In this document: positions 3,422 to 31,887 of the stretch, piece after piece
How positions within the stretch are numbered: the stretch's first letter is position 1
Layout: the number at the start of each line of letters is the position of its first letter
Assembly (NCBI RefSeq): GCF_000196555.1
Contig: NC_015067.1
Coordinates: 1,530,001 to 1,562,000, forward strand
DNA from: Bifidobacterium longum subsp. longum JCM 1217
GTDB taxonomy: Bacteria; Actinomycetota; Actinomycetes; Actinomycetales; Bifidobacteriaceae
Reading direction: 5' to 3'
DNA length: 32,000 bases
The notes under the pieces: generated by a model
Seen by the model: the letters and a program-made list of their open reading frames with translations, nothing else
Database searches by the model: none
Told to the model about the DNA's origin: nothing
Made by a program: the position numbers and the translations under genes

Positions 3422-3530
3422 CGTAGCGCTGAAAAAAAAAGAATCATTCTTTGCCAGCAAAACGCGGCTTATTGCATCGTCTTGTTTCTAGAATGGGAAA
3501 TTGAACGAATACTACGACTAGTGAGGCATT

Positions 3531-4358: not shown

Positions 4359-4381
4359 ACCTTTATCGGTCCAGATACGCA

Positions 4382-4417
4382 AAGAGGGAACTCTCCGTCA
4401 TTGGAGGGTTCCCTCTT
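4382..4417 (+). terminator. stem-loop downstream of the AKR gene
   Basis: AGAGGGAAC (4383-4391) pairs with GTTCCCTCT (4408-4416), with an inner TCTCC/GGAGG extension. TCTATATGCTTT follows. It sits between convergent transcription units. Confidence 0.5.
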
Positions 4418-4501
4418 CTATATGCTTTCGATTCGGCCACACCCTAGGTGCGAGAGCCTATGTCTTGTCGGTGTCTTGTCTTGTTGGTTTCGGGTATGCG
4501 A

Positions 4502-4533
4502 AAGCCCCTTGGGGCGTGTGCTCCAAGGGGCTT
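4502..4533 (-). terminator. rrn operon terminator hairpin
   Basis: The 11-bp perfect stem AAGCCCCTTGG / CCAAGGGGCTT has a 10-nt loop. It lies about 12 nt after the 5S 3' end and is followed on the minus strand by TTTCG. Confidence 0.5.
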
Positions 4534-4545
4534 CCTGTACGTGTG

Positions 4546-4663
4546 GTGCGGCGGCGTGCTACTCTCCCACACCCTGTCGGGTGCAGTACCATCGCCGTGC
4601 CAGGCCTTAGCTTCCGGGTTCGGAATGGGACCGGGCGTCTCACCTGGGCCATGGCCGCCGCAA
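4546..4663 (-). rRNA. rrf: 5S ribosomal RNA
   Basis: The minus strand reads ...GCGGCGGCCATGGCCCAGGTGAGACGCCCGGTCCCATTCCGAACCCGGAAGCTAAGGCCTGGCACGGCGATGGTACTGCACCCGACAGGGTGTGGGAGAGTAGCACGCCGCCGC. This includes the conserved CCGAAC and GGGAGAGTAGG-like boxes, and helix I closes GCGGCGGC/GCCGCCGC. Confidence 0.93.
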
Positions 4664-4832
4664 ATCTTCTCTTATACGGTCAGACGCTGGGGTCTGCCGG
4701 CCTGTGGCGGCCTGGGAACCGGACAGCGGACGCGGATATGTCGATGTTTCGTCTTGTGGCCAGACAATGCTCATTGCCGTCTGGTGTCGTTTGCAGGAGG
4801 AAGATGCGGTCCAACCGCCAGGGGTTGGAATG

Positions 4833-7900
<3,068 letters not shown>

Positions 7901-8327
7901 CCACGAAAGTGCATGGCCGCAAGATTCCTCTAGCAAATTCCCAGACGACAAATCATCACACTAAAAATGATCACAAAACGATCGAAACGAACAATAGAGT
8001 TCGATTCGAAATCAACAGCAAAACAAAGATTCAAAAACTCTTGTTTTGCTCGCGTCCACTATCCAGTTCTCAAGCCACCACGCACCGCCACGCCATCGCG
8101 CCGGCACACGGCCGGCCCCCAGGCACGACGGGCATCGAATCGCGCCAGGCAAAAAGCCTGGGGTGGCGATCCGGGAGCCCAAAAGCGCATCCATACCACC
8201 CCGGCACCCACCGCACGACCGGCAGGGCAAAGCCAACGACGTCTTCCACACCAGCAACCCCGCCGCCATCGCACCATGCGACGCGCGGGGCGCACACCGT
8301 CGGACGAACATCCGACTGAATTCTCCG

Positions 8328-9857
<1,530 letters not shown>

Positions 9858-17292: not shown

Positions 17293-18064
17293 GGCGCTAT
17301 TGCTGTTTTTGTGGGTGGTGGTTCGTCGTTGAGCCGTTGAGGGAGTAAGTGGAGAGCGCTTTCCGGGTAGGATGTTTTCGACCAAGATAAACAAACAACC
17401 GCAAAGCGCCTGATGAACAGCATATTCAACCAGCTCCTCAACGTCAAAGGCGTGGTGGTCGAGACCGTGCGGATCGTCGATTCGCCCCTGCGCCCCGAGC
17501 CCGTGCTCGAGGTTCGTGTGCGCCCGCGCAGGGGCATGCTCCGATGCTCACCGCTGTGGCAGACGTCGTCATGGTTACGACCAAGGTGGCGGCGTGCGTC
17601 GTTGGCGTCATCGGGATTTCGGCTGCTGGCGGGTCGAACTGGTCGCCATGATGCCGCGCGTGGACTGTCCCGGGTGCGGGGTCGTGGTCGCGTCCGTGCC
17701 GTGGGCGGAACCGGGCAGCCGGTTCACGCGCGACTTCGAGTCCGAGTGCGCGTGGCTGATGAGCGACCAAGCCAAGACGGAATTGAACCATTGGGTGTTC
17801 TGGGCGTCCCACAACCGTATCCCCGAGATAGTCGAACTCGCGAGGAGGATCAGGAGACGGCGCCCGGACATCCTCAGGACCATCCAACTCGGCTACTCCA
17901 ACGCCAGGCTCGAGGCGTCCGACAACCGCATCAAGGTCACCATCCGCATGGCCTACGGCTTCCACCACGTCACCAACCTCATAGCACTCGTCATGCTCCG
18001 TTGCGGCGGACTCGACGTCCGACTCCCACAACCCGCAATCTAACCCACGAAAACAGCAGAAGCC
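17293..18064 (+). mobile_element. internally deleted ISL3-family insertion sequence relic (772 bp) retaining both terminal inverted repeats
   Basis: The left end is GGCGCTATTGCTGTTTTTGTGGGT (17293-17316). The reverse complement of the right end (18043-18064) is GGCTTCTGCTGTTTTCGTGGGT. The core 15-mer matches at 14/15 and both ends start with GGC. The ends enclose the transposase remnant. The flanking 8-mers differ (TACTATAA vs TCAAAAGT), so there is no target duplication. Confidence 0.7.
17413..18043 (+). pseudogene. ISL3-family transposase pseudogene (frameshift plus in-frame loss of the DDE core)
   Basis: Frame 1 gives MNSIFNQLLNVKGVVVETV...VRVRPRRG.LRC. Reading then continues in frame 2 (shift near 17550) with HRCGRRRHGYDQGGGVRRWRH.DFG...RVDCPGCGVVVASVPWAEPGSRFTRDFE..AWL. 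It then jumps near 17785-17795 straight to the ISL3 C-terminus WA..NRIPEIVELARRIRR...G.SNARLEASDNRIKVTIRMAYGFHHVTNLIALVML.CGG. The total is about 210 aa, against about 430 aa for intact ISL3 transposases. Confidence 0.75.
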
Positions 18065-18073
18065 TCAAAAGTA

Positions 18074-18508
18074 ATGAGTAAATATGATAGTCTGGTCAAG
18101 TATATATGTATCCTTGACGGAGATAGTTTTGGCTCTTGGGTTATTGACCGTGAAAACGATGGAACGCTCGAACATCCAATTCAGATGCCATATGTAAGCT
18201 ACTCTGATATGGTGCATCATTTTATCGATGATATATATGATTTTATCGACCATAACAAGGACATGGAGCTGAACCGTTACGGTGACATTCTGAATCAGAA
18301 TGGCCTTAAATGGGGAAGCAAGTCTATGAGCACCGCAGATGTATCGAATCTGGATGCACAGTGCATCATGGCATTGATCACCGGAGCTGTCCGGGCAGAA
18401 CGATTCTGTGATGGTGCTTTGCTTGGATTTTTCAAAGATGGCAGTATCCGGAAATGGCTGGAGCGACTGAAAGAACTTGATAATGGCAGCGGAACCGAGG
18501 TGAGATAA
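18074..18508 (+). CDS. hypothetical 144-aa protein, first gene of the DUF262 cassette (family not recognised with certainty)
   Basis: This is an ATG ORF in approximately 40% GC DNA, and its stop is 4 nt before the next start. The acidic N-half and the C-terminal AVRAERFCDGALLGFFKDGSIRKWLERLKEL give no confident family assignment. The start codon is only 10 nt from the IS relic end and has no obvious SD. Confidence 0.55.
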   Translation: MSKYDSLVKYICILDGDSFGSWVIDRENDGTLEHPIQMPYVSYSDMVHHFIDDIYDFIDHNKDMELNRYGDILNQNGLKWGSKSMSTADVSNLDAQCIMALITGAVRAERFCDGALLGFFKDGSIRKWLERLKELDNGSGTEVR

Positions 18509-18512
18509 AGGC

Positions 18513-19823
18513 ATGGCTGAAATTAAGAGCGTAAATGAACTGTTGAGCATGAATCTGAATATTCCGGACTATCAAAGGCCGTACAAGTGGGATATTCAAA
18601 ACATCGACGATTTATTCCTAGACATCACCAATGCAATTAGTGATGCGGACAGATACAGAACTGAGTTCAAATACCGTATCGGAACGATCATCCTGCACAG
18701 AACAAAGAATGACACCTACGATGTGGTGGATGGGCAGCAGAGAATCATTTCTCTGGTGCTTCTAAAGCAATGCCTTGAACCGGGATTTGAGTGTTCGATT
18801 CTCCAGATAGATTTCACCAACAAGGTGAGCCAGTTCAACATTCACAGGAACTATGCGTTTATCAGAGAGTGGTTCTCCCTAAAGAGCGAAGATGTAAAAC
18901 GGGACTTTATCCATGCCTTTGAGCATATTTTAGAGGTCGTCGTTGTTTGCGTAGACAAAGTAACCGAAGCGTTCCAGCTTTTCGATTCACAAAATACAAG
19001 AGGTAAGGCATTAGACCCGCATGACCTTCTGAAAGCGTACCACCTCCGTGAAATGAAAAAGTATCCCTATGAAATGGAACACGCTGTTACAAAATGGGAA
19101 GCAAAGGATACTGAGAAGATCAAAGAGCTGTTTGATCTATATTTGTTTCCAATCTTGAATTGGAGCCGAGGCATTAAAAGCAAACCGTTCATAGCCAAGG
19201 AAATCGACACCTATAAAGGTATCGCAGAAAGCTCAACCTATTCTTACGCACGACGGGCAAGCCGAGCTATGCCGTATTTCCAGATTACCGAGCCATTTAT
19301 TTCCGGCAACGACTTCTTTGAAATGGTCGAGCATTATATGTATCTGCTCCAGGATATTAAGTCGGAGATCTGCAACAATCCCCGTTTCAAGGAGATTAAG
19401 CTGGTTATCTGCGGCGGCAAGGATGTAGAAACACCGGAAGAAATGGACAAAGTAAAGTTCGGCTCTGCCGGTTTCGGATACACGAAGAATCTGTTTTATT
19501 GTGCGCTGCTTTGCTATTACGACAAGTTCCATAACTTCGATGAAATGGCAGTCAAGAAGCTATTTTCCTGGGCGTTTATGCTCCGTGTAGATATGAAGAC
19601 CCTGGGGTTTGACAGCGTAAACAAGTACGCTATCGGTGACGAAAATTCCAGATATACAAACACAATCGGTATTTTCTCCAAGATCAGCTTTGCCCGGATG
19701 CACCACGAAATATCCGGATTGCAGATAAAGGTACGGAGAGGACCGGACAGCCCATCCAATAGATGGATAGACTTGTTGTATGACACGATCAAAGAAATCA
19801 ATGGATATGGAGGTGCGGAATGA
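18513..19823 (+). CDS. DUF262 (ParB/GmrS-like NTPase) domain protein without a nuclease domain
   Basis: The N-terminal IPDYQRPYKW, the VVDGQQRIISL box and FQLFDSQNTRGKALDPHDLLK are the DUF262 signature. No His-Me/HNH-type motif appears in the C-terminal half. The stop overlaps the next start as ATGA (19820-19823). Confidence 0.85.
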   Translation: MAEIKSVNELLSMNLNIPDYQRPYKWDIQNIDDLFLDITNAISDADRYRTEFKYRIGTIILHRTKNDTYDVVDGQQRIISLVLLKQCLEPGFECSILQIDFTNKVSQFNIHRNYAFIREWFSLKSEDVKRDFIHAFEHILEVVVVCVDKVTEAFQLFDSQNTRGKALDPHDLLKAYHLREMKKYPYEMEHAVTKWEAKDTEKIKELFDLYLFPILNWSRGIKSKPFIAKEIDTYKGIAESSTYSYARRASRAMPYFQITEPFISGNDFFEMVEHYMYLLQDIKSEICNNPRFKEIKLVICGGKDVETPEEMDKVKFGSAGFGYTKNLFYCALLCYYDKFHNFDEMAVKKLFSWAFMLRVDMKTLGFDSVNKYAIGDENSRYTNTIGIFSKISFARMHHEISGLQIKVRRGPDSPSNRWIDLLYDTIKEINGYGGAE

Positions 19824-21763
19824 GCAAATTAGTAACTGAACTTCATATTATTGGTGAAAACGGCAATATGTTCGACACAGATATGGAGTACATAATCCCT
19901 CTATACCAGAGAGCCTATGCGTGGGAGGACAAGCAACTCACCCAGCTGATTGAGGATATTAACGATGTTGCGGAGGACTCCAATTACTACATTGGCTCCT
20001 TGATCGTTTCCAAGCAGTTCGGACGATATGAAGTAGTGGATGGCCAGCAGCGGCTTACCTCGCTGTATTTGCTGCTGAACTGCCTTGGAATCAAAACAAA
20101 GCCCACACTCACATTTGCGTGTAGAGAAAAATCGAACTATACCCTAAGAAACATTGAAGAACTACTGCTCGAAAACCGCAGCAAGATCGATATGGATCGG
20201 ATTGAACCGGGAATCCAAAGGGGCATCAGGATACTATCTCACGAATTGACAAAGGATCATTTCGACAGGGAAAGCTTTATGGAAAAGCTGGCTAAAATTA
20301 TCGTCTATCGGATTGAGGTTCCGGAGAATACCGATCTGAACCGCTATTATGAGATAATGAACACCAGAGGTGAGCAATTAGAGCAACACGACATTCTAAA
20401 GGCCACGCTTATGAGCTATTTGAGTGATGATTCTGAGAAGGGCTTGTTTGCGAAGATATGGGATGCTTGTAGCGATATGACCGGCTATGTGCAGATGCAC
20501 TTCATCAGCAAGAACAATGCGGTAAGAGAGGCTATTTTCGGCTCCGAATGGAACAGTATGCCGCCTAACAGCTGGCAGAAATACAAAAAGGCTATAAGTG
20601 GAACGACACAGGAAACCACCGGACATAAAATCTGTGACCTGATCGAAAAGAACTTCAAGGTTGAAGATGATGAAGGCTATGTGGATGGTGATGTGCGTGT
20701 TCGCTTTGAAAGTGTTATTGAGTTTCCATACTTCCTGCTGCATACGCTGAAGGTCTATGTGAGTCTTTACGGTGTCACCCATGAAATAGCAACTTCAAAA
20801 ATCGTGGATGAACTCTTGGATGATAAGAAGCTCCTTGATGCGTTCAACAGAGTTGTATCCTGCGGCATAACGGATACCGGCAGGATCGCAGACAGCAAAG
20901 AAGATTTTGCCAGAGGGTTTATTATTTGCCTGCTCAGAACCAGATACCTGTTCGATAAGTACATCATAAAGAGAGAGTACGCAAATGACAGCGCTGATGG
21001 CGAATGGAGCTTGAAGAGCCTGTATGTTTCCGGACAGCAATCGAAGAAGAAAGCATATTACGGGAACTCCGAGTTCACCCGTTCCGGCGAATGGACATGT
21101 ACAAATGATTGGCGAACCAAGACCAATATTATGATGCAGTCCGCCTTGCGTGTTTCCTACACTTCCCCAAAGGTAATGCACTGGATTACCAAACTCTTGA
21201 TATGGCTTTCGGAAGCTGATTGCAAGAATATCAAAAATGATGCCATTACAAAGTTTGATAAAGTTGCCGAAAACATCGCTATTGATGCAGTAAGGGAAAA
21301 CTTCTTTCAGGTTTGTTCGAACGGCGTGTATGCGATGGGTGTCAATACTCCGCATATTGTCTTTAACTACCTGGATTACTTGCTGTGGAATGACGACCGG
21401 AACGGAAAGAAGAAGAAATACAGCGACTTTGTTTTTGAATTTAGAAATTCCGTAGAGCATTGGTATCCGCAGAATCCATCTGAGGGAACATTCGAGCAAT
21501 GGAAGGATGGTGTTGACCAGTTTGGAAATCTCTGTATCATTCAGAGAAATGTGAACTCCAAATTTTCTAATATGTCTCCGGAAGCAAAGAAAAGTACATT
21601 TAAGGATATGATAGTCAAGGGGAGTATTAAACTTCGCATTATGAGTGAACTGACAGAAAAAAACGGCGACAAACCAGCCAGCCTTTACTGGAAGGAAAGG
21701 GCGTACAAGGCGCATGAAGAAGAAATGCTTGGCCATTTGAAAAAAGCTTGCAACATTGAGTAA
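19820..21763 (+). CDS. GmrSD-like fusion protein: DUF262 NTPase domain + DUF1524 His-Me finger nuclease (putative type IV, modification-dependent restriction enzyme)
   Basis: The N-terminus carries IIPLYQRAYAW, VVDGQQRLTSLYLLL and YYEIMNTRGEQLEQHDILK (DUF262). The C-terminus carries SVEHWYPQNP...FGNLCIIQRNVNSKFSNMSPEAKK (DUF1524 EH..PQ / GNL...N..N pattern). A GGAGGTG SD lies 5 nt upstream. Confidence 0.85.
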   Translation: MSKLVTELHIIGENGNMFDTDMEYIIPLYQRAYAWEDKQLTQLIEDINDVAEDSNYYIGSLIVSKQFGRYEVVDGQQRLTSLYLLLNCLGIKTKPTLTFACREKSNYTLRNIEELLLENRSKIDMDRIEPGIQRGIRILSHELTKDHFDRESFMEKLAKIIVYRIEVPENTDLNRYYEIMNTRGEQLEQHDILKATLMSYLSDDSEKGLFAKIWDACSDMTGYVQMHFISKNNAVREAIFGSEWNSMPPNSWQKYKKAISGTTQETTGHKICDLIEKNFKVEDDEGYVDGDVRVRFESVIEFPYFLLHTLKVYVSLYGVTHEIATSKIVDELLDDKKLLDAFNRVVSCGITDTGRIADSKEDFARGFIICLLRTRYLFDKYIIKREYANDSADGEWSLKSLYVSGQQSKKKAYYGNSEFTRSGEWTCTNDWRTKTNIMMQSALRVSYTSPKVMHWITKLLIWLSEADCKNIKNDAITKFDKVAENIAIDAVRENFFQVCSNGVYAMGVNTPHIVFNYLDYLLWNDDRNGKKKKYSDFVFEFRNSVEHWYPQNPSEGTFEQWKDGVDQFGNLCIIQRNVNSKFSNMSPEAKKSTFKDMIVKGSIKLRIMSELTEKNGDKPASLYWKERAYKAHEEEMLGHLKKACNIE

Positions 21764-21769
21764 GCAAAG

Positions 21770-21814
21770 AAGCCATAGCGACAACTCCAGGCGAGAGAGT
21801 GACAGCTATGGCTT
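21770..21814 (+). terminator. candidate terminator between convergent genes
   Basis: AAGCCATAGC (21770-21779) pairs with GCTATGGCTT (21805-21814) and TTCTTT follows. The 25-nt loop is long, which lowers confidence. Confidence 0.4.
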
Positions 21815-21818
21815 TTCT

Positions 21819-22157
21819 TTACACTTCAGCGTTGAAATGCCAAACCTTGGCGGGTATTTCTCTGTTGTTGCCGCTGATCTTAATGTGGTCGGTATAGATG
21901 TTCAATTTCCAATGGTTGTACTCATTGGCGTTGTATCTTTTACATTCCTGAGTTAGATATGATTTCAGAACCTCCCACTTTACCATGAGGATGTTCCTAC
22001 TCTTCAAGCGGAGCACAACAAGGGCTTTATCGGTTTCGCTCAGAACATGGGCTTGTTCTTCTGTAATATCAACCCAATAAAAACCTTGCGGATGCATCTT
22101 CGACTGAGGGGTGAAGAATGTGATGGTTTCGCCATTCTGTTTTCTCCCTCTAAACAA
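21819..22157 (-). CDS. hypothetical 112-aa ORF (TTG start; possibly a remnant)
   Basis: This is an open frame in approximately 40% GC DNA, convergent with the GmrSD-like gene. The track start is a TTG and the first ATG is at codon 21. I recognise no domain. It abuts the IS30 fragment junction. Confidence 0.35.
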   Translation of the reverse strand: MFRGRKQNGETITFFTPQSKMHPQGFYWVDITEEQAHVLSETDKALVVLRLKSRNILMVKWEVLKSYLTQECKRYNANEYNHWKLNIYTDHIKISGNNREIPAKVWHFNAEV

Positions 22158-22226
22158 GATTTTGAGGCTTCTGCTGTTTTCCTGAGTTCTAAATAGAAGC
22201 GCAACACCTAAACCTCAACTCCCTAT

Positions 22227-22440
22227 TGAACACATACACGGATCCGCCGCTACCTGCCCAAGAGGACCAGTCTCGACGGCCTGACGGACGCCGACCTGCA
22301 GGCCATCGTCCAGGAGATCAACGACACCCCCCATGAAGGTCCCGGACTGGGAAACACCCAACGAGGCTTGGTACCGCGAGCTCGGCAAGCTAATGTCGAG
22401 GACAAGCCACCCAAAGACGAGCATTGCACTTACAAATTGA
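22227..22440 (+). pseudogene. IS30-family transposase, C-terminal fragment with a frameshift
   Basis: The plus strand reads ...RIRRYLPKRTSLDGLTDADLQAIVQEINDTP. After a +1 shift at about 22330 it reads MKVPDWETPNEAWYRELGKL...* with the stop at 22438-22440. This matches the conserved IS30 tail (R.Y.PKG.dls....eL..i...lN.RPRK.LgW.TP.E.). The GC is about 60%, flanked by AT-rich DNA. Roughly the C-terminal 70 codons are visible. Confidence 0.6.
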
Positions 22441-22559
22441 ATCCGGGCCAGCCACTCGCCAACAACGTATCGGTCCATTATATGTCAGCAACATTCTGAA
22501 CTATCATGAACCATCAAGTACAACTAACTACTGAGAAAATCCAATCTTGCGAGAGGAAA

Positions 22560-23858
22560 TTATGCGGCGGTGATGCTATTTCTGATCATCGTGCGCCATT
22601 GAACGCGGCTAATAGGAGAAACAGTCTGGAATTGTAAAGACCTCAGGATCGTAAGGGCCTCTCTGTCCAGGGTCAACAAACTACAAATTCTGCGATCCTG
22701 TATCATACAATCAAAGTTAATTCGTTCTAAACCATAATGATCGAACAATCTCTGTAACAAACCGCCCCACCGGCTAAGCATCTCTATCAGGTTGCTCGGC
22801 GACGCCATATTCCACACAGTCATATATCTTTTATCCGAATACAGAGGTATGCACTGTGAAGCTCTGACTATTTCCGCCTTCTTTATGCCCGTTTCTTTGG
22901 AGGCATCCGCTATATGCCAAACATATGCGTATGGCGGATCATGCAGGATACATCGGATTAGCTCCAACATATCATAAAGGCGTTTCTTGGACCCTTTATC
23001 GCATTCCAGAGCCGCGCTAGCGAACCCAGATCTTTCACCACCTTCACAATGTATAATCCGAAGCTCATGTCTTTCGGTATCCACTTTGGGCCAGCTCCGA
23101 TTGGCTTTCATCAAAAGGTTTAGACCGTCAATAATCTCATTGATACAGAACTCAGACACATCCTTCGTCAAATCACTGAGCACTCGTATATGAATATCGC
23201 AATCCGTCTTCTCCGTGAATATATGATTCACCCAACGCGCGCCAGTTATCTTATACTCAGAGAAACGAAGCATACAATCATCTATATTTCTTCGTGCACT
23301 ACTCAACTGAGCGAGCATCTTTAATTCATCTAATCCAATGCGGCAATGAGTGCTTCCACAACTAAATTGTATTGTCGATATCCCATATTTAGGAAATACA
23401 TAACACAAGCGGTCAGACCAAGATTGAAAGCGAGCGAAAGTGCCAGGAGGCAATGACCTAGCACCAACGTCACCTCCAACTTCAAGAGGACAGCAGCCAA
23501 CCCCTCTCCCATTCTCATCCTGCAGATCAAGACCATTACTCTCATTTAGATAGCTTTGAAACGCATAGCACAAAGACATCAAAATGGCGATGGCCGCACG
23601 GTCATAAGCAGATTGAAAATCAGCAGTCGCCTTTCCGTTCACATCGGCCTGCAACACGCAGCAATCAGCAACATATTCATTCGCGCTGTCAGAAGGACGA
23701 AGATTAAACTGACATAGGGCCACACCAAAATGCTCCATATATGTCAGGTGCTCAAAATACTTCTCTATTGCAACACCGATTTCGCCATAAAGCGTTCGCG
23801 CAAGCTCAATGGGAATTCTTTTACCTTCATCCCGGATTACGTTCATGGTCACGGACAC
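22560..23858 (-). CDS. hypothetical 432-aa cysteine-rich protein, no recognisable domain
   Basis: This is a long uninterrupted ORF 41 nt downstream of the FtsZ-fragment gene on the same strand. The start is a GTG at 23858 with GAAGGAG 10 nt upstream (alternative ATG at 23846). No transmembrane segments, no P-loop and no tubulin signature were seen. Confidence 0.7.
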   Translation of the reverse strand: MSVTMNVIRDEGKRIPIELARTLYGEIGVAIEKYFEHLTYMEHFGVALCQFNLRPSDSANEYVADCCVLQADVNGKATADFQSAYDRAAIAILMSLCYAFQSYLNESNGLDLQDENGRGVGCCPLEVGGDVGARSLPPGTFARFQSWSDRLCYVFPKYGISTIQFSCGSTHCRIGLDELKMLAQLSSARRNIDDCMLRFSEYKITGARWVNHIFTEKTDCDIHIRVLSDLTKDVSEFCINEIIDGLNLLMKANRSWPKVDTERHELRIIHCEGGERSGFASAALECDKGSKKRLYDMLELIRCILHDPPYAYVWHIADASKETGIKKAEIVRASQCIPLYSDKRYMTVWNMASPSNLIEMLSRWGGLLQRLFDHYGLERINFDCMIQDRRICSLLTLDREALTILRSLQFQTVSPISRVQWRTMIRNSITAA

Positions 23859-23899
23859 GGCTAATCAACTCCTTCATTAGGCAATCAGCAGCTGCAGAA

Positions 23900-24328
23900 T
23901 CAAACACTGTCCGAGCATCGACCGAATCCGATTACTGTGACCTCTCCGCCCGAATCAATTTGGCCATCGAACATCATGCCCCAAACAATCATGGCATCAG
24001 GTTGAACGCAGGCACGTATCTCATCCACAGCACGCGTTACTTTCTGGAGTTTTTCATGAGCCGAACAAGCGAAAGAGATGCAGACGGCGTTCATCATCTT
24101 CAACGAATCATTTGAGAATGATGCCATTGCGCGCTTCGCGGCCTCAACTATTCCATCCGTACCTTCTGCTTGGCCAGCGCCGGACCAAGCCAGATCGTTG
24201 CCGCCCATCGCCGCTTTGATATCGGACCAATCAACATGTATGTACGAAGAATTCATATCAGATATATCATCCAATACCCGAAAACCAGCGTTTAACTTTT
24301 TCGCCATCTGCAACTCTTGCTTGTCCAT
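23900..24328 (-). CDS. stand-alone FtsZ-like H7/T7-loop/C-terminal-subdomain protein (no GTP-binding domain)
   Basis: VLDDISDMNSSYIHVDWSDIKAAMGGNDLAWSGAGQAEGTDGIVEAAKRAMAS...DAMIVWGMMFD....GEVTVIGFG aligns by eye with FtsZ GVQGISDLI.PGLINVDFADVKT.MS..G.A.MG.G.A.GE.RA.EAAK.AISS...IFG.......VTVIATG. An AAGGAG SD lies 5 nt upstream of the ATG at 24328. Confidence 0.7.
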   Translation of the reverse strand: MDKQELQMAKKLNAGFRVLDDISDMNSSYIHVDWSDIKAAMGGNDLAWSGAGQAEGTDGIVEAAKRAMASFSNDSLKMMNAVCISFACSAHEKLQKVTRAVDEIRACVQPDAMIVWGMMFDGQIDSGGEVTVIGFGRCSDSV

Positions 24329-24388
24329 TTTGACTCCTTATCGAGAGCTATCAATACTCCTCACAATATGCACGACAAGCAATCAACA

Positions 24389-24400
24389 GTAGATATCTAC
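24389..24400. repeat. perfect 12-bp palindrome GTAGATATCTAC in the spacer upstream of the FtsZ-fragment gene (possible operator)
   Basis: The palindrome is read directly from the sequence. It lies 61-72 nt upstream of the ATG at 24328, inside the 144-nt addA/FtsZ-fragment intergenic spacer. Confidence 0.3.
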
Positions 24401-24472
24401 CGGAATATTGAAGATGAACAAGCTACTAACGTTTAGCTGAAAACGAGTCAGTTACCGAGGCCCCGGCATTGA

Positions 24473-27400
24473 TCACGAAATGTGAATAATCCTGTGTCCA
24501 ATGAGCCCTACAAGCCATCGCCGTACTACAGCATATCCAGAATAGCGATGTTCTAGGGCCTCGGCGTAGAGAGCTTGTTGTTGAGCGTATTCGGTGCGGA
24601 GACGCTGAGACCAGTCTTTGACTGTTTCACCCGGGCGCATTTTGTCGGTTTTGTAGTCGAAGAGGGTGATGGTCTTGGCGGTTGGATCAAGGAAATAGCC
24701 GTCTATGATACCTCGGACCACGATTGTGTCGTCACATTGCTCAGCAACGTTGCCGCTGTCATTCTTCGTGTTGGGCACGCCACCAGCCATGCCGCTACCG
24801 TTCACCTTGGCATTAAGCCGGTTACGTTCAATCAACATCGAGAATGGCTCTTCCCGGAACAGAGTATCCCGATGAGCTCGTATTTGCGCCGATAGCGGGC
24901 AATTTTCTCCAGTGACAAACCAGAGCAAGCCTTCCAGCTCGCGAGTCAGCACAATATGAGCCACTTGCGGCGTGATGACATGATTCGCTTCCAGACGGTC
25001 AACAATGTTTCTCAGCTCGGCTTCGCACTGCTCACGGAACGGCTCAGTACCCCAATCAAAGAGTTCCAGTACATTGTGGACCGCAGTACCCACCTCCGAA
25101 GCAGATGGCTCAACGTCGGATACCTTCTTCATAAAGTCAGGAATAAAGAACCCACTATGCGCTTCCCGCCTTTGCTTCCAATCATCTAGATTGTCTTCCA
25201 GCATGGCAATTGGCGCAGCCGCGTCATCAGACGGCAATACAGCCAGCGAATCAGTGTCATCAGATATAGATTCCGCATCATCAATCATCCAGCTGCGAGC
25301 CTTGGAGGAACTCACTACCACTGGCATGCGCGGAGGCTCATCAGGCAATCGCAAACCAGTCACATCAATACGTTTATTGATATAGCCATACCCGTCCGTT
25401 CGCTCATTCATAGTGGTCGTCGGCTCAGGCGCAGCACTGCAGAATCGAATCGTAATGGCCCTGCCCGTCGCCGCCATAGCCGGCGCTGTTTCCTGTAGTC
25501 CCGCAGCAAGATTCCACGCACGGACCTCATTAGGGCGAAGAATCGCAGACGAATCATCATCCGCATCTCCAGACGCCAGCAATGATCCTAGAATCCAATA
25601 GAGATAATTGGGGCTACCACTATTCTTGACCACCGTTCGTGGATCTATGGTGCGTCCATCGCCGCTTAGCGCGATGCCTTGAGCCATCGTACGCAAATTC
25701 AGATTGCCATCATCGTTCTTTCCTGGACGGTACGATCCCGCGATAATCAACTTGCGTTCGGCACGAGTCATCGCCACATAGAGCAAACGAAGTTCCTCTG
25801 CCGCCTCCAACTCCTTGGCCCGCGAATCAATCACTGCGCGCTGGAAAGTATCCACTCGAACATGGTTACGTTGGTCAACCAACGATAAGGCACCTTCGCC
25901 ATATTCGGCAACAGCCCCATCCTCATTCCTTGTCTGATGAGCAATCGTGCGAACGACAGCGGTTCTCGATCCGGTCAGCAGATTATTGCTGGCACCCATG
26001 AGTATCACGACGGGCCATTGCAATCCCTTGGATTTATGAATCGTCATGATATGCACGGCGTTTTTGGTAGGCACTGTTGAAGCTTCTTCACCGGAGCCAC
26101 TCGCGGACCACATTGTTACGGCATCAAGGAATGGTTGCAATCCACGCTCCTGAGCTACAGCAAATGCATCAGCCTTTTCTACAAGCAAGCGCAGGTTCGC
26201 CTGCCGTCGCTCACCTTCAGGCATATTGCCTGCGAAATCGAACAAGCCAGAAACGGCATAGAGATGCCACAACGAATCAGACAGAGAGTGAACTCGCGCA
26301 TAATCGCATGCGGCATCATAGATTCGCAGGAATGCCGATATCTTTGCAAGCAACACATCAGAAGAAAGAACAGCCGATTCATCAGCTTCTCCCCCACTCT
26401 CAGCAATCCGCCGCATAACGTCAAATAGCCAGCCTCTGTTATGCAGACGAATCCGCGCCAAATCATCATCCGTGAACCCCATAGTCCGTAGCACCGCAAC
26501 CAACGGCACATCCTGATGACGATTGGCGATAATACGCAACCAATCCAAGGCGATCTGTATCTCCGGCTGACGATACAGGTCTCCAACGCCCTGTACTTCG
26601 ACTGGAATGCCGACACGATATAGTCGGTCAGCCAGGTCGGCAAAATGAGTAGCGCCACGAGCCAGCACCGCGATATCCCCATATGAATACTGCGCGCGAG
26701 GCCCCTCGCAGAGCTCCTGGACACGGCGCACTATCATGTCCACCTGTAATTCGTCCTTGCCGGCGCGAACTGTCGGTGCAGTGTCAGTGCCGTTTTCATC
26801 AGCCACAACATCAGCACTCAAGTCAGGTGCCGCGTTACTCACCAACAATTCAATGGCTTCTGCATCGAATGGTTTACCGGCTTGCTTTGCCGAGCCGATT
26901 TGCAACTGTTCCTTCAGGTAATCGGTCGCACCCATATTCGGCGTCATCAGTCGGGCAAATACCGTATTCACAAAAGTGATGATTTCCGGCACCGATCGAT
27001 AGTTCACCCACAATTCCCGGCGATGGCTCGCATCCGTAACACTATTGCAGATATCGCCGAACTCCTCCGGCGAGGCATCACGGAACCCATAAATGCTTTG
27101 CTTCACATCACCGACCATGGTAAGTTTGGCTGCATTTCGGCTGATTTCGCGAATGAATCGATTCTGCAGGGCGTTATTATCCTGGCATTCATCCACATAA
27201 ATATATCGCCACTGAGCACCGATACGCTTGGCCACGTCAGGCTGCTGCATGGCATCCAATGCCCAGAAAGCCACATCACTGAACTCCGCTACGGACTCCT
27301 GCTGTTTCACAAGCGCATACTGCTGGTCGAACGTGGTGATGAGCGCAATCAATCCTTCGAGTCTTCGCGCAGCGACCTCATCAAGCGAGTCCACTTGTTC

Positions 27401-28588
27401 AGCGGTAAAGGCCAGTTTCGATTGCAAATCAGAAACGATCCCTTTAATGCCCCGCACCGTTTCCGCCAAGCGACGGCCCAGTTCACTGTCTTTGGGTACG
27501 GCGATTGCCGTACTCTTAAGAATGGCAGTTTTGCCGACAGTAATGCGCTTGGGCAGTACGTCCAATGGATTGGCATCGATAACACGAGCACGAACTGCAT
27601 TCCATGATTCGCTACGCAAGTACTGAGGCAAATCGCATATCATCCGCAATGATTTGACTACCGTATCTTGCTGCGCGGTGTGCGCATCGTGGCAGCTGGC
27701 GAGCGCCTCATCAAGACACGATCGCAATTCGGCAAGAGGATGTTCTGCCATATCAATCCAGCCTCGAAAATAACGGTCCAAATATTCATTGCCGTATTCA
27801 CCACCAACGACCTGATTCAGCGACGCAATGTTGAACCGGTATGGTTCGGCGAGCCGGCTAAGCCAACCGATGCGGTTGGGCTTGGTGAGTGCCTTGTCAT
27901 ACAGGCTCATCATGGTGGCGCGCAAGTCACCATCATGCCGGGGCCCTTGCATGTTGTCCAACACATCCATGAACCGCGCGTGCATTGAGTTGCGCTCGTC
28001 ATACCACGATTCGAATAACGCGTCGAGTGTTTGGCCTCTCAGCCGGTTCTTCATGGCATCATCAGCAAGAATCTGGAATCCTGGAGCCACCGGCAATGTA
28101 TCGGCATTGCGATCCACGATTCTTTTGGAGAGCGCATCAATAGTGCTGATTTGCACGGTTGGCAGATCGTTCAAGGCAACGGAGAATACGGTTTGCGCAT
28201 GGTGGCAATCGTGCAGAATCGTACGCGCCAGTTCGCTGTCGTCTCCACCTAATTGATAGTCCGTATCCAAGAGCACGAGTGAACCCGGCTGGCATCCATG
28301 ATTGCGCCGCGCATACAGAATGGCGTACTGCAGGTTCTGTTCCAAGCGCCGGCGAATTTCTGCGGCTGCGGCAACGGTGAAAGTAATAATTAACGATTCG
28401 CGGATGGATGAATGCGCTTCGTCTGCATTACGGTTCAGCAAGTCCAGCAGAATATCCTGCAAGAGTTGAGTGGTTTTGCCGGTGCCTGCGGATGCGCTGA
28501 TGACGTAAGGCATGGTGTTTGTCGGAAAATCGTCCGAGAGATTATCCGCATCTTCCGACCTAGGTAATGCATCAACATGTTCTACCAT
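24473..28588 (-). CDS. addA: AddA/RexA-type helicase-nuclease (UvrD/PcrA-like SF1 motor + C-terminal PD-(D/E)XK nuclease)
   Basis: The helicase motifs seen are ISASAGTGKT (I), ITFTVAAAAEIRRR (Ia), YIYVDECQDNN (II), MVGDVKQSIYGFRDA (III), NYRS (IV), TIHKSKGLQWPVV (V) and LLYVAMTRAERKL (VI). The nuclease motifs are GTAVHNVLE, VRGIIDGYFLD...ITLFDYKTDK and QQQALYAEAL. A GAAGGAGG SD lies 6 nt upstream. The start overlaps the addB stop by 7 nt. Confidence 0.9.
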   Translation of the reverse strand: MVEHVDALPRSEDADNLSDDFPTNTMPYVISASAGTGKTTQLLQDILLDLLNRNADEAHSSIRESLIITFTVAAAAEIRRRLEQNLQYAILYARRNHGCQPGSLVLLDTDYQLGGDDSELARTILHDCHHAQTVFSVALNDLPTVQISTIDALSKRIVDRNADTLPVAPGFQILADDAMKNRLRGQTLDALFESWYDERNSMHARFMDVLDNMQGPRHDGDLRATMMSLYDKALTKPNRIGWLSRLAEPYRFNIASLNQVVGGEYGNEYLDRYFRGWIDMAEHPLAELRSCLDEALASCHDAHTAQQDTVVKSLRMICDLPQYLRSESWNAVRARVIDANPLDVLPKRITVGKTAILKSTAIAVPKDSELGRRLAETVRGIKGIVSDLQSKLAFTAEQVDSLDEVAARRLEGLIALITTFDQQYALVKQQESVAEFSDVAFWALDAMQQPDVAKRIGAQWRYIYVDECQDNNALQNRFIREISRNAAKLTMVGDVKQSIYGFRDASPEEFGDICNSVTDASHRRELWVNYRSVPEIITFVNTVFARLMTPNMGATDYLKEQLQIGSAKQAGKPFDAEAIELLVSNAAPDLSADVVADENGTDTAPTVRAGKDELQVDMIVRRVQELCEGPRAQYSYGDIAVLARGATHFADLADRLYRVGIPVEVQGVGDLYRQPEIQIALDWLRIIANRHQDVPLVAVLRTMGFTDDDLARIRLHNRGWLFDVMRRIAESGGEADESAVLSSDVLLAKISAFLRIYDAACDYARVHSLSDSLWHLYAVSGLFDFAGNMPEGERRQANLRLLVEKADAFAVAQERGLQPFLDAVTMWSASGSGEEASTVPTKNAVHIMTIHKSKGLQWPVVILMGASNNLLTGSRTAVVRTIAHQTRNEDGAVAEYGEGALSLVDQRNHVRVDTFQRAVIDSRAKELEAAEELRLLYVAMTRAERKLIIAGSYRPGKNDDGNLNLRTMAQGIALSGDGRTIDPRTVVKNSGSPNYLYWILGSLLASGDADDDSSAILRPNEVRAWNLAAGLQETAPAMAATGRAITIRFCSAAPEPTTTMNERTDGYGYINKRIDVTGLRLPDEPPRMPVVVSSSKARSWMIDDAESISDDTDSLAVLPSDDAAAPIAMLEDNLDDWKQRREAHSGFFIPDFMKKVSDVEPSASEVGTAVHNVLELFDWGTEPFREQCEAELRNIVDRLEANHVITPQVAHIVLTRELEGLLWFVTGENCPLSAQIRAHRDTLFREEPFSMLIERNRLNAKVNGSGMAGGVPNTKNDSGNVAEQCDDTIVVRGIIDGYFLDPTAKTITLFDYKTDKMRPGETVKDWSQRLRTEYAQQQALYAEALEHRYSGYAVVRRWLVGLIGHRIIHIS

Positions 28589-31500
28589 GCCTTGCCTCCT
28601 TCAGATGTATTATTCATATGAAGAGCCGCTTCTTTGAGCTCCAGCAATGTCACTGCTGTCTCCACCTCGAATATGTTGCTATTCAACACATCCCACGCCA
28701 TGATGTCGGCCACATCGCTGTAGGCAAGACCATCACGGCCGTCAACCAAAGAACGATAAGGGCGCACCGGCAGTTTGCCGTCCAATATGTTCTGGCAGGC
28801 ACCCACTATTTTCCCGTGCACATAATCCGCTATGCCACGAAATTCTTCCGCACTCAGTTGTTCGATACCGATGCCGGTTTCGTCGGATTCTCCTATAAGC
28901 ACGCCACTGTTCGGCATATCAAAGCCTCGCCATACGTTTCTGATGCGCATGTTCTGAGCACTTGAATCGTCACTTGGCTCATCGAACAGACTCGTTGATC
29001 CATCGTCTGCGCTCGGCAACATGTTGTATTGGTTATTCAGCGCGATGCGTTCTCGAATGGTTGCGCTGGGTTTAATCGGGAGAAAGAACATGCCTGCTAC
29101 TGGCATTCCGGAGTTGTGCTGGGCGGCAGAAGCATACGTAAACAGCTGAAGTTCATGGCCGTAGTACACATTTGAAGCGCGGCCGCCATCATTGCGAGAC
29201 GGTTTGCCGAACAACGTACGGGCAGAAGACTTATAGTCCAGCACAACAATGCCGGCGCTCTCTCGCGAAATATTGGTATCGCGAATTACCGTATCAATGC
29301 GGTCGACCTTGCCATTGATACGCAATGCAACCGGGATTTCCTTGTCCCTCGCCCTACCGATTAATTGTTCCCCTGAATATGGCGACTGCCATGCACCGGT
29401 CGTTCCTCCAACGTTGCCAAATACTTGCTCTACACACGTAGGCGTAAGCATCGTCTGTGCGGACGATAATGCCTCACGTTGCGCAGCAGCATCGACGGCA
29501 AAATCCATCAGCGTATCGACCAGCTGACGATGAATCATACGCATACGATTACTGGACCGCAGCACCTCCATACGCGGGTCTTCGTTCAGCACCGTCCACT
29601 GATTGCAGCCTCGATCCAGTCTGGAATAGTCGGCGATAAGCTCTTGCATGTCTGTTGCAGTGGGCTGAGGTGGTAAGCCGTTCAAATCTCGTTCGTTCTT
29701 GTGTCGCTCGATCCAGGCATTGACCGCATGTTCCAGCACTGCATGATAGAACGTGCCTTCAAGCGCGGCATCAAAAGCGAACGCATTTGCCACGTTAACT
29801 TTCAATCCGTATTTCAGGAAATACTCATACGGATTGCGATAGTACGTTTCTATTGCCGAAACCGATGCATTGAACACACGAGTCGAGATCGAAGGATCTG
29901 CACCATGAGTGCGATAAACGCGATGCACATAATCCGGCCTAGTGAACAACCGATATGCCAGTTCGCGGTCAAGGGGACGATACTCTGTTTCAACGGTCGG
30001 CACAGCGCGTTTGCTCGCTCCGATGATTTCGCTCGTATCCGATGTACCCGTCTCCCATTGGCTGATATATGGCGAGCATGCTTGTGCAGCGTTACGCAGA
30101 CTCTTTGGATAGGTCATAGACAACTGCTGCGTTGCGCTGGCAACAACACCGTTAAACCATAGCGGTTCTTGCCCGGACCTACGTTCCACCGTACCGGAAA
30201 GTACATTCCACGCTTCCAAAGTTTTGCCTTGGGAAGTCAGGAACTGTGACAAATCCAGCCGCTCGCCGTCATCGAGCAGACCGGTCTCATGCGGAATCGC
30301 AGGCAATTGAGATTCACTGCAACCCAGAACAATCACATATCTGTATGGATGTAAAGGCGATGACATCGGCAATACGTCCACGGCGCTGGCGGAGACCGGA
30401 CGCGAATCGATTGACTGCGCGGCGAGCGTCGAAGCTAGATTTCTAGCAAAGATTCCTACATATTCAGCAAAATAATCGTTACCGAGCTGTTGAACCATGT
30501 CGTCAAACGCATTCATGATGACGGTCCAAACTGGCGCGGATCCTTCAATGGTTTGGGCGTATTCGGTAAGAAAACCAACCATCCCGCCTAGAGCCTCCCG
30601 CACGGTTGCGCTAGGCCGCGGCCGAAACACATCAGCGGCTTGCTGAATCAGCGAACGAATCTTCTGCAAATGTGCAGCGAACGGTATGTCTGTATCGATC
30701 CATACCGTTGCCGGATTGTTGGAGTTCAGCTGATTTTCAATGTCATCGATTGCCGTTGGAGTCAAGTTCAGATACCGGCTGAAGATACCGGAACGCAGTA
30801 TGCGCAGGATGGACTGGGGTTGAAGTTCGTAGGTCGCGGAATCAAGCAGTCCCAGAATCGCATCAGCGAACGGATGGTCAAGCATCGTACTGGACGCGGC
30901 AATATTAATCGGTATCCCCTGATACGTGAATTCCGATGCAATTTGGGCTTGATATGAACCAAGGTCTCGTGAGGTGACCAGCACATCACCGTATGAAATT
31001 TCTGGATTGTCCGCGATGAACTTCTTGATGGACGCTGCCGCATAGCGCACTTCGGCAGTAGTATCCGGCATCGCACACACTGATGTAGAAGCGGATGAAG
31101 CGAAAATACTGGACAGCGTATTTCGGTTTCCATCATCGCGTCTCTGCAATGCTTCCAGATAATCCGGATCAGAACCGGCACCAACCATCACCGTCAGATG
31201 CACGTATTGCGCAAGTGTATGAACTATCCTCATCTCCGAAGCGTTGAGGTGTGCGAAACCGTACAGATAGAACCAGCGATTACTCCCATGCCGCTGTGCC
31301 CATGCACATATGGTTTCATGGGCGGCTCCGGGGAATGTATACCGTTTACCTAACCGTTGCTCCACCAGTTGCAGCAAAGAGCCAAGCACCGAAAGTCGAG
31401 CATTCGACTGATGAGCGGCCAGAGCAAGCACCTCTTCAGCACTGACCCCATCATTATGCAATTCAACAATTTGCTTGGTGAACTGGTCAATAGCCTCAAA

Positions 31501-31887
31501 CGAGTCACCAACCTGATTACGCAACGATTCATTATCATTCAGACACTTCGCTACGTAATTTCTCAGCGACATCATGCTGATTGATGGGCGAATGTACCTT
31601 CCATAATCCTGGTTGCCGATAATCGAGCTCATCATGCTTGCCAGAGAATGGACACCCACATTCATCCCCGGTTCCAGACGTTCGCGGAATTCCGGTCGGA
31701 CCATCGACTGCAGTACTTGCTTTTCCACATATGCGCGCAAGCTTGCCGGTGTCAGAATAACGAATCGCCCACGGCAACTATCCGGAAAATCTGCTTCCGT
31801 ACATCCGGCACCATCAGAAAGGACATGATCAATCAGGGCATGAATGTCATCACACCCTCGCTCGGGCCGTATCACCATGACACTCAT
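28582..31887 (-). CDS. addB: AddB/RexB-type nuclease subunit (inactivated motor, C-terminal PD-(D/E)XK nuclease)
   Basis: The 1101-aa gene lies directly upstream of addA, in the Firmicutes addB-addA order. The N-terminus RFVILTPASLRAYVEKQVL resembles AddB/RexB but has no Walker A. The C-terminal nuclease motifs are GTFYHAVLEHAV, GKVDRIDTV, VVLDYKSS and ELQLFTYASAA. A GGGGAGGG SD lies 6 nt upstream of the ATG at 31887. Confidence 0.8.
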   Translation of the reverse strand: MSVMVIRPERGCDDIHALIDHVLSDGAGCTEADFPDSCRGRFVILTPASLRAYVEKQVLQSMVRPEFRERLEPGMNVGVHSLASMMSSIIGNQDYGRYIRPSISMMSLRNYVAKCLNDNESLRNQVGDSFEAIDQFTKQIVELHNDGVSAEEVLALAAHQSNARLSVLGSLLQLVEQRLGKRYTFPGAAHETICAWAQRHGSNRWFYLYGFAHLNASEMRIVHTLAQYVHLTVMVGAGSDPDYLEALQRRDDGNRNTLSSIFASSASTSVCAMPDTTAEVRYAAASIKKFIADNPEISYGDVLVTSRDLGSYQAQIASEFTYQGIPINIAASSTMLDHPFADAILGLLDSATYELQPQSILRILRSGIFSRYLNLTPTAIDDIENQLNSNNPATVWIDTDIPFAAHLQKIRSLIQQAADVFRPRPSATVREALGGMVGFLTEYAQTIEGSAPVWTVIMNAFDDMVQQLGNDYFAEYVGIFARNLASTLAAQSIDSRPVSASAVDVLPMSSPLHPYRYVIVLGCSESQLPAIPHETGLLDDGERLDLSQFLTSQGKTLEAWNVLSGTVERRSGQEPLWFNGVVASATQQLSMTYPKSLRNAAQACSPYISQWETGTSDTSEIIGASKRAVPTVETEYRPLDRELAYRLFTRPDYVHRVYRTHGADPSISTRVFNASVSAIETYYRNPYEYFLKYGLKVNVANAFAFDAALEGTFYHAVLEHAVNAWIERHKNERDLNGLPPQPTATDMQELIADYSRLDRGCNQWTVLNEDPRMEVLRSSNRMRMIHRQLVDTLMDFAVDAAAQREALSSAQTMLTPTCVEQVFGNVGGTTGAWQSPYSGEQLIGRARDKEIPVALRINGKVDRIDTVIRDTNISRESAGIVVLDYKSSARTLFGKPSRNDGGRASNVYYGHELQLFTYASAAQHNSGMPVAGMFFLPIKPSATIRERIALNNQYNMLPSADDGSTSLFDEPSDDSSAQNMRIRNVWRGFDMPNSGVLIGESDETGIGIEQLSAEEFRGIADYVHGKIVGACQNILDGKLPVRPYRSLVDGRDGLAYSDVADIMAWDVLNSNIFEVETAVTLLELKEAALHMNNTSEGGKAW

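Follow-up and report, generated by a model that had tools for sequence, protein, structure and literature searches.

A stand-alone C-terminal half of FtsZ encoded in a variable island of Bifidobacterium longum

The 32-kb stretch of DNA analysed here (the window) comes from Bifidobacterium longum subsp. longum JCM 1217 and carries, at positions 23900..24328 of the minus strand, a gene for a 142-residue protein, referred to as half-FtsZ, that is homologous to the cell division protein FtsZ from helix H7 to strand S10. The protein comprises helix H7, the T7 loop with the string HVDWSD and the elements H8 to S10. Its open reading frame (ORF) is an exact sequence match to BLLJ_1315, which is annotated, depending on the source, as 'hypothetical' or as 'cell division protein FtsZ'. 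It is tentatively proposed that half-FtsZ is a functional, lineage-specific FtsZ paralogue that has been cut down to the GTPase-activating half and docks on the top face of host FtsZ.

Relationship to the C-terminal half of FtsZ

Profile, sequence and structure comparisons all place half-FtsZ with FtsZ. The Pfam profile FtsZ_C (PF12327) matches the protein with an expect value (E) of 8.7e-8 and 32.8 bits, above the gathering cut-off of 27, and the NCBIfam model TIGR00065 (ftsZ) aligns residues 27–134 with profile positions 209–321 of 353, at a score of 37.4 bits that lies under the equivalog cut-off of 295.2. A phmmer search of the PDB sequences matched FtsZ in 49 entries, and its two other matches were weak (E > 0.5); the best match, to residues 200–311 of Mycobacterium tuberculosis FtsZ (E 3.6e-7), contains one 1-residue gap. 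When the half-FtsZ family was aligned with 18 full-length FtsZ sequences by hhalign, residues 12–137 matched FtsZ columns 192–317 with a probability of 99.4% (E 3e-21). An AlphaFold2 model of half-FtsZ has a predicted local distance difference test (pLDDT) score of 81.7, with values of about 90 at residues 40–139 and of 50–60 in the N-terminal helix, and the top 50 PDB matches to this model in Foldseek are all FtsZ (template modelling score ~0.8, E 4e-11). The model leans to FtsZ and does not constitute independent evidence, because the alignment used for modelling consisted mostly of FtsZ.

The residues of the T7 loop are well preserved. HVDWSD (residues 31–36) aligns with the FtsZ T7 consensus NLDFAD, with both aspartates, D33 and D36, kept. 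The T7 pattern N-x-D-x-x-D appears as H31-V-D33-W-S-D36, and the substitution of His for Asn is also the state of Bifidobacterium FtsZ. Residues D33 and D36, the equivalents of Staphylococcus aureus D210 and D213, are invariant in both intact alleles of half-FtsZ, as is L94, which is the equivalent of Escherichia coli L272 by our own numbering. Further along the protein, the strings EAAKRAMAS and VTVIGFG are present. Four cysteines (C83, C88, C107 and C138) are conserved between the alleles and are not found in FtsZ.

The nucleotide-binding half of FtsZ is missing. None of the six frames of the window contains a [GAS]GGTG[STA]G signature, and a tblastn search of the window with full-length FtsZ returned the half-FtsZ ORF as its sole match, with no remnant of the N-terminal domain. 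The match to FtsZ, which spans FtsZ residues 173–316, begins at the first codon of half-FtsZ. At its other end, the protein stops six residues past S10 (GFGRCSDSV), with no linker and no C-terminal peptide, which has the form DLDIPDFLR in bifidobacteria. The only significant Pfam or NCBIfam match is FtsZ_C; half-FtsZ is not a member of the known FtsZ inhibitor families (SulA, MciZ, MinC, SlmA, Kil and others), and a search of the PHROGs gave no match. Judged by its sequence, half-FtsZ belongs to the FtsZ/tubulin superfamily at the level of a domain, yet it is not FtsZ proper.

The first-pass annotation of this DNA had described a stand-alone H7/T7/C-terminal half of FtsZ that aligns almost without gaps, keeps both acidic T7 residues and has no GTPase half. 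Each of these statements is borne out by the searches above: the half is identified by FtsZ_C, TIGR00065, phmmer and hhalign, the alignment to M. tuberculosis FtsZ is broken by a single residue, both aspartates fall opposite those of NLDFAD, and the GTPase signature and N-terminal domain are absent. The profile and Foldseek comparisons that it had put forward as checks likewise favour FtsZ. Its author knew of no described family of this kind, and none appeared in searches of proteins, structures and the literature.

A conserved gene with its own start site

The half-FtsZ ORF starts with ATG and cannot extend further in the 5′ direction, because an in-frame TAG lies 21 nucleotides (nt) upstream. 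A Shine–Dalgarno sequence, AAGGAG (24334..24339, minus strand), is located 5 nt from the ATG and is kept in the other two haplotypes of the locus. A spacer of 144 nt separates the ATG from the stop codon of addA, the upstream helicase–nuclease gene. Approximately 60 nt 5′ of the ATG, a perfect 12-nt palindrome, GTAGATATCTAC (24389..24400, minus strand), can be read directly from the sequence. It falls in the sole upstream block that is conserved between alleles, takes the imperfect form CGGTA-N6-TACCG in the second allele, and may be an operator of the half-FtsZ gene. Scans for LexA boxes, promoters and terminators around the gene yielded nothing above chance.

The second allele, of 150–153 residues and 69% protein identity, takes this position in other strains of B. 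longum. Both intact alleles start with MDKQEL, and across three lineages the N-terminus reads MD(K/E)QEL. Comparison of the two alleles over 141 codons gave proportions of synonymous and nonsynonymous differences (pS and pN) of 0.65 and 0.17, a ratio of nonsynonymous to synonymous divergence (ω) of 0.13 and a synonymous divergence (dS) of ~1.5, at which synonymous sites are near saturation. For the adjacent partner gene, the same two haplotypes gave ω 0.31 and dS ~0.45. The dS of half-FtsZ is thus far higher than that of its partner, a gap within the cassette that suggests different histories or recombination.

In the assembly collection, 11,189 indexed blocks, complete genomes included, hold the exact 142-residue sequence, and half-FtsZ is found in thousands of B. 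longum assemblies. The strong Shine–Dalgarno sequence had earlier been taken to indicate an expressed gene rather than debris. The position of that site and the low ω agree, and half-FtsZ is, by these signs, a real gene under purifying selection and not debris.

Taxonomic distribution and origin

The half-FtsZ family has a narrow range. A profile of the family was scored against all of 1.84 billion representative proteins, and the matches above 70 bits were limited to its own cluster and fragments of that cluster (310, 146, 124 and 77 bits). The next matches were ordinary FtsZ proteins at 68 bits or less, within a total of 1,693 proteins at E ≤ 1e-3. No full-length relative closer than canonical FtsZ was present among these representatives. 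A scan of species-representative genomes returned one spurious FtsZ match only; the source genome may, at a guess, have been masked there. The family is confined to the B. longum species group, where it is taxonomically narrow yet very abundant in a major gut commensal. The literature search found no paper that mentions BLLJ_1315 or a natural N-terminally truncated FtsZ.

A wider half-FtsZ family was considered and rejected, as other short FtsZ_C-only matches look like pieces of canonical FtsZ. In particular, FtsZ_C-only calls of 214 residues, found on 372 contigs at the ftsZ–sepF locus, proved to be artefacts of runs of N in scaffolds. These calls arise in B. adolescentis-type metagenome scaffolds, in which 100-N gaps lie inside ftsZ (for example, positions 3400–4700 of locus L040). 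Such scaffold-gap artefacts call for caution when databases are mined for 'half FtsZ' proteins. A phage or plasmid origin was also rejected, as no relatives of half-FtsZ were found in phage records, IMG/VR contigs or the BFVD viral structure predictions.

A lineage-specific feature of the T7 region bears on the origin of the gene. The motif SYIHVD occurs in three of 62 aligned FtsZ sequences, one of which is a cluster named FtsZ of Bifidobacterium adolescentis, and the remaining FtsZ proteins have variants of the consensus (P)G(L/F)INLD at this position. Identity to bifidobacterial FtsZ is 56% in S10 and 50% in T7 and H8, the second highest value, against ~30% overall. In a neighbour-joining tree, half-FtsZ sits on a long branch with a bootstrap of 14%. 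It is the SYIHVD motif by itself that suggests that half-FtsZ most likely derives from bifidobacterial ftsZ; this origin is put as a suggestion because the bootstrap is 14% and the guanine-plus-cytosine (GC) content of the cassette lies far below that of the backbone.

The possibility that half-FtsZ is the 5′-deleted remnant of a full-length gene was rejected, as three lineages share the same N-terminus and the 1.84 billion representatives include no closer full-length relative. No syntenic full-length ftsZ-like gene, which the first-pass annotation had named as grounds for refutation, was found. The three-lineage comparison indicates that the ancestral state of the locus is the truncated gene, with no full-length precursor, and that this gene decayed once its partner was gone.

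The partner gene and the two-gene cassette

Downstream of half-FtsZ, 41 nt beyond its stop codon, lies the partner gene BLLJ_1314 (22560..23858, minus strand), which is annotated as 'hypothetical', starts with GTG and encodes 432 residues. The partner has its own Shine–Dalgarno sequence, AAGGAG (23869..23874, minus strand). Its length is 426–432 residues across alleles, and its relatives are limited to its own two alleles. No match to the partner was found in profile searches of Pfam, NCBIfam, PADLOC, PHROGs or the PDB sequences, and its AlphaFold2 model (pLDDT 40) is unusable. The protein is rich in cysteine, with 18 Cys residues of which 13 are conserved between alleles. It also contains a weak internal repeat, in which residues 136–166 resemble residues 353–383 (z 4.4 versus shuffles) with the pattern W-x3-L-x3-F-x2-YG-x3-I-x-F-x-C.

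A split FtsZ, in which a neighbour supplies the GTPase half, was considered and rejected. The partner family aligns with FtsZ with an hhalign probability of 0.2%, and since the partner is unrelated to FtsZ, the pair is not a split FtsZ; the window holds no GTPase signature. The other neighbour, AddA, is a UvrD/PD-(D/E)XK protein and not an FtsZ N-terminal domain.

The two genes form a cassette (22453..24409, minus strand) that behaves as an evolutionary unit. The pair is conserved in two haplotypes of B. longum, between which the cassette is 79% identical in DNA sequence and the addAB flanks are 99.2% identical. Half-FtsZ probably opens a two-gene operon whose second gene encodes this orphan protein.

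Natural variants show how the two genes fare apart. In a third lineage, whose addA is 86.6% identical to that of the window, there is no partner gene, and half-FtsZ has become a pseudogene whose in-frame stops, one at codon 7 and one at the position of W116, were verified in two contigs (L035 and L037). The pseudogene lies at 2923–3342 of L035, and also in L036–L039, next to a PDC-S26-type PDDEXK_4 gene, and its ORF (P0017) is found on eight contigs. In CP146882.1 (L032, 13731–15748), an insertion sequence (IS; rve) cuts the partner to 292 residues and half-FtsZ is intact. Conversely, a 1-nt deletion in a G-run shortens half-FtsZ to 131 residues, with loss of the last strand (5001–5396 of L043), and at least 14 contigs carry the frameshifted half-FtsZ with an intact 432-residue partner. 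The G-run is a possible slippage site.

It had been asked whether homologues of half-FtsZ are always short and always tied to the 432-residue gene. They are short in all three lineages; the tie to the partner holds in two haplotypes and fails in the third lineage, which has no partner and a half-FtsZ pseudogene. As each gene is disrupted naturally with the other intact, a classical toxin–antitoxin addiction pair is disfavoured.

Genomic context

The cassette sits in a low-GC variable island between dnaE and addA (18000..24472). The GC content of the island and cassette is 43–50%, compared with 57–61% for the dnaE backbone. In the window, the island also holds a DUF6508 gene (18074–18508), two GmrSD-type genes of the type IV restriction kind (18513–19823 and 19820–21763, both plus strand) and, in this haplotype, an ISL3 transposase remnant. 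A 112-residue ORF (21819–22157, minus strand) lies between the cassette and the GmrSD genes, and some genomes have it annotated as a gene; it matches no family and lies outside the block that is conserved between haplotypes.

In all ten contexts that were read, the order is DnaE-like gene, AddB-like, AddA-like, half-FtsZ, the 428- or 432-residue gene, GmrSD, GmrSD_N/DUF7834, DUF6508, ISL3 remnant and dnaE. The DnaE-like gene of these contexts encodes 861–878 residues and is split by a disruption in one strain. Among ten further contexts read for the AddA protein, nine have the same order, the exception being L032 (CP146882.1).

Island haplotypes were compared between the window and loci L001, L015–L024 and L035–L039. 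In haplotype 2, a divergently oriented Uzume-like gene (PADLOC UzuA, E 5e-38) lies between addA and half-FtsZ; the island of this haplotype also has three unknown genes, and a variant of it carries HEC-05 (E 9e-170). Haplotype 3 carries PDC-S26 (E 8e-35). The cassette aside, the island genes of known kind are defence genes in every version seen. No PADLOC-DB 2.0 model matches the 142- or the 432-residue protein. The addA–dnaE interval of the B. longum group is a defence-island hotspot that exists in three haplotypes or more.

On the other side of the cassette, the AddB/AddA-like pair occupies 24473–31887 (minus strand) and beyond (1807–13116 of L025), with a GC content of 51–54% that is below that of core genes. 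Upstream of addB–addA lie the 861–878-residue DnaE-like gene, in which the OB-fold portion is missing, and a WYL/HTH_11 regulator of divergent orientation. The AddB/AddA, DnaE-like and WYL/HTH_11 group may represent a separate cluster for damage response or accessory repair. Elsewhere, the window consists of housekeeping sequence (an rRNA operon, hisD, a sugar kinase, MCRA and dnaE). The ribosomal RNA (rRNA) operon is complete (5S, 23S and 16S; 4546–9855, minus strand) and lies ~14 kb from half-FtsZ; several long ORFs in it are spurious overlaps with rRNA.

Proposed mode of action

In the FtsZ filament, the T7-bearing subunit contacts its neighbour through H10, S9, H8 and T7, all of which belong to the GTPase-activating domain (PMC8936486), and these four contact regions therefore all lie within half-FtsZ. 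The two domains of FtsZ fold independently (PMC7327170), and short fragments of E. coli FtsZ that contain the T7 loop are dominant-negative in vivo and inhibit growth (PMC9245647). Given these three points, docking on the top face of FtsZ is the most economical reading of the protein.

Half-FtsZ would act through its retained bottom polymerisation face (T7, H8, S9 and H10), by which it would attach to host FtsZ at the top face, the one that bears GTP. With their top face occupied, free FtsZ-GTP monomers could not be added to filaments. Alternatively, half-FtsZ could complete the catalytic site in trans and thereby burn the GTP of the monomer, or it could sit on the shrinking end of the filament. 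The net outcome would be that Z-ring assembly is disturbed under certain conditions, and the timing of this interference would be set by the partner protein and by a trigger such as phage infection or DNA damage.

The polarity of the filament constrains this proposal. Growth of the FtsZ filament takes place at its bottom end, where T7 is exposed, and shrinkage at the top; incoming monomers are added via their top face. The top face is therefore offered by free monomers and by the shrinking (minus) end, and half-FtsZ would not cap growth. Capping had been expected in the first-pass annotation and does not fit a protein whose retained face docks on the top face; sequestration or trans-activation is expected instead. 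The phage or plasmid tubulin that had been suggested as an alternative target is also unlikely, because SYIHVD is specifically a motif of Bifidobacterium FtsZ.

The established homology and fold, the invariant D33, D36 and L94, the SYIHVD motif, purifying selection on the gene, retention of the pair in two haplotypes, decay of half-FtsZ where the partner was lost, the presence of defence genes in every version of the island and the low GC content all favour the proposal that half-FtsZ is a functional paralogue that docks on the top face of FtsZ. Several observations weigh on the other side. Osawa and Erickson, in 2005, reportedly found that the isolated C-terminal domain of E. coli FtsZ (195–383) was folded and had no dominant-negative activity in vivo. 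Of the 47 FtsZ columns that are conserved at 80% or more, half-FtsZ retains 23; it has lost the SPLL motif, its interface segments show no clear excess of conservation over its core, and its N-terminal helix is modelled with low confidence. The pair is also dispensable, since each gene is found broken with the other intact, and dispensability is usually a property of conditional defence or conflict genes. Finally, mutations in the top interface were reported to be non-toxic, unlike those in the bottom interface (PMC8936486).

A broader version of the proposal, which is somewhat unlikely as a whole, holds that half-FtsZ targets the nucleotide face of host FtsZ in trans, as a top-face binder or a trans-acting GTPase activator, and forms the effector or sensor arm of an unrecognised two-gene defence-island module that links anti-phage or conflict biology to the Z ring by self-mimicry. 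We infer the binding of half-FtsZ to FtsZ, the consequence of that binding and the role of the partner.

Alternative explanations

The same face could be a lure rather than a weapon. Half-FtsZ might be a target mimic, a free copy of the bottom face of FtsZ that attackers bind in place of FtsZ itself. The attacker might be a phage division inhibitor, with half-FtsZ as a sponge or as a sensor arm that frees or activates the 432-residue effector, as in a guard model; it might also be the 432-residue partner, for which half-FtsZ would serve as a target-mimic antidote. SulA and MciZ both bind the bottom of the FtsZ monomer, which makes this surface a proven target of inhibitors, and the retained T7 residues and bifidobacterial SYIHVD fit a faithful mimic equally well. 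The defence-island context of all haplotypes, two alleles with 79% DNA identity inside 99%-identical flanks and the order of a small gene followed by a large one are consistent with such a role, as are the strain with an IS-cut large gene and an intact small one and the lineage with no large gene and a small pseudogene. The partner as a toxin in need of an antidote is difficult to reconcile with the frameshifted half-FtsZ that accompanies an intact 432-residue gene in at least 14 contigs. Furthermore, neither protein matches PADLOC, and we know of no FtsZ inhibitor from a Bifidobacterium phage, which also counts against a mimic. Overall, a decoy function is fairly unlikely.

An unlikely alternative is that the FtsZ C-terminal fold was co-opted as a structural or adaptor subunit of the 432-residue protein, with the T7 residues carried along as baggage or reused. 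The ~30% identity to any FtsZ, the change of half of the strongly conserved columns, the strict pairing of the two genes and a phylogeny that resolves no recent origin from host ftsZ all fit such a domain, and the four acquired and conserved cysteines (C83, C88, C107 and C138) have a counterpart in the Cys-rich partner. Against this, both aspartates and the lineage-specific T7 motif have been kept despite a dS that is near saturation, and T7 and H8 are among the segments closest to bifidobacterial FtsZ, only S10 being higher.

It is improbable that half-FtsZ is a checkpoint inhibitor of the SulA, YneA or ChiZ type, that is, a chromosomal housekeeping regulator that docks in the same way and is induced with the neighbouring repair genes upon DNA damage, so as to delay division. 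The gene lies directly downstream of addB–addA on the same strand, with no clear terminator between them, and an 878-residue DnaE-like gene and the WYL/HTH_11 regulator are found further upstream; damage-induced division inhibitors of Actinobacteria are also poorly known. However, no LexA-box-like site was found near half-FtsZ, the divergent Uzume-like gene separates it from addA in haplotype 2, and it belongs to the low-GC variable island rather than to the conserved backbone, is found in the B. longum group only and is a pseudogene in one lineage.

A dead remnant of a partial ftsZ duplication, or an artefact of annotation or assembly, is highly improbable: FtsZ_C-only calls are common in databases, those checked being artefacts, and one lineage carries a pseudogene, but ω is 0.13 over 141 codons, the N-terminus and Shine–Dalgarno sequence are conserved in the intact alleles (whose length is here counted as the same), the sequence is indexed in thousands of blocks that include complete genomes, and the gene lies far from the ftsZ locus in a window with no N-domain remnant.

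Significance

The regulation of FtsZ is poorly understood in Actinobacteria, and in bifidobacteria especially, which to our knowledge have no Min, Noc/SlmA or FtsA. The structurally characterised inhibitors discussed here, SulA and MciZ, attack the T7 face, and half-FtsZ would be the first candidate for a binder of the top face. It is a possible tool for the study of filament polarity, of GTPase activation in the monomer and of treadmilling. The protein belongs to a probiotic species that ranks among the most abundant commensals of the human gut and has thousands of sequenced strains, in which its database names are misleading. Should the cassette prove to be a module of defence or conflict, mimicry of a host protein of the division machinery would be added to the repertoire known so far.

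Comparison with known systems

Half-FtsZ shares with canonical FtsZ the homology from H7 to S10, the fold, the T7 aspartates and the bifidobacterial variant of the T7 loop. It differs in that it is without the nucleotide-binding domain, the GGGTGSG signature, the linker and the membrane-anchor-binding C-terminal peptide, and it is predicted to be unable to bind GTP or to polymerise head-to-tail alone.

SulA and MciZ are small proteins that block FtsZ assembly at the longitudinal polymerisation interface, as is proposed for half-FtsZ. They have no sequence relation to it, and both bind the bottom (T7) face of FtsZ; half-FtsZ is a copy of that face, and would bind the opposite, GTP-bearing face at the top or else be a competitor of FtsZ for these inhibitors. 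The plant protein ARC3 has an FtsZ-like domain that is no longer a GTPase polymer and is a negative regulator of chloroplast FtsZ assembly. It differs from half-FtsZ in being a eukaryotic multidomain protein, in which most of the FtsZ core is fused to other domains, and is not a stand-alone C-terminal half.

Two-gene toxin–antitoxin or defence modules directed at the cytoskeleton, such as CbtA/CbeA (PMC5624674), resemble the cassette in being small, bicistronic accessory modules in a variable island with a plausible connection to FtsZ. The cassette differs from them in having no toxin, antitoxin or defence homology in PADLOC, Pfam or NCBIfam.

FtsZ1 and FtsZ3 of Agrobacterium and other Hyphomicrobiales are likewise truncated, non-essential extra copies of ftsZ outside the dcw cluster, and overexpression of Agrobacterium FtsZ1 blocks division (bioRxiv 10.1101/2025.09.29.679267). 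In these proteins, the N-terminal peptide and the GTPase domain are retained and it is the C-terminal motifs that have been lost, so that the truncation of half-FtsZ is the opposite one. The same interface elements as those of half-FtsZ are present in engineered fragments of E. coli FtsZ, namely the dominant-negative 30-mers and the 195–383 fragment; these are laboratory constructs, whereas half-FtsZ is a natural, selected gene with a partner.

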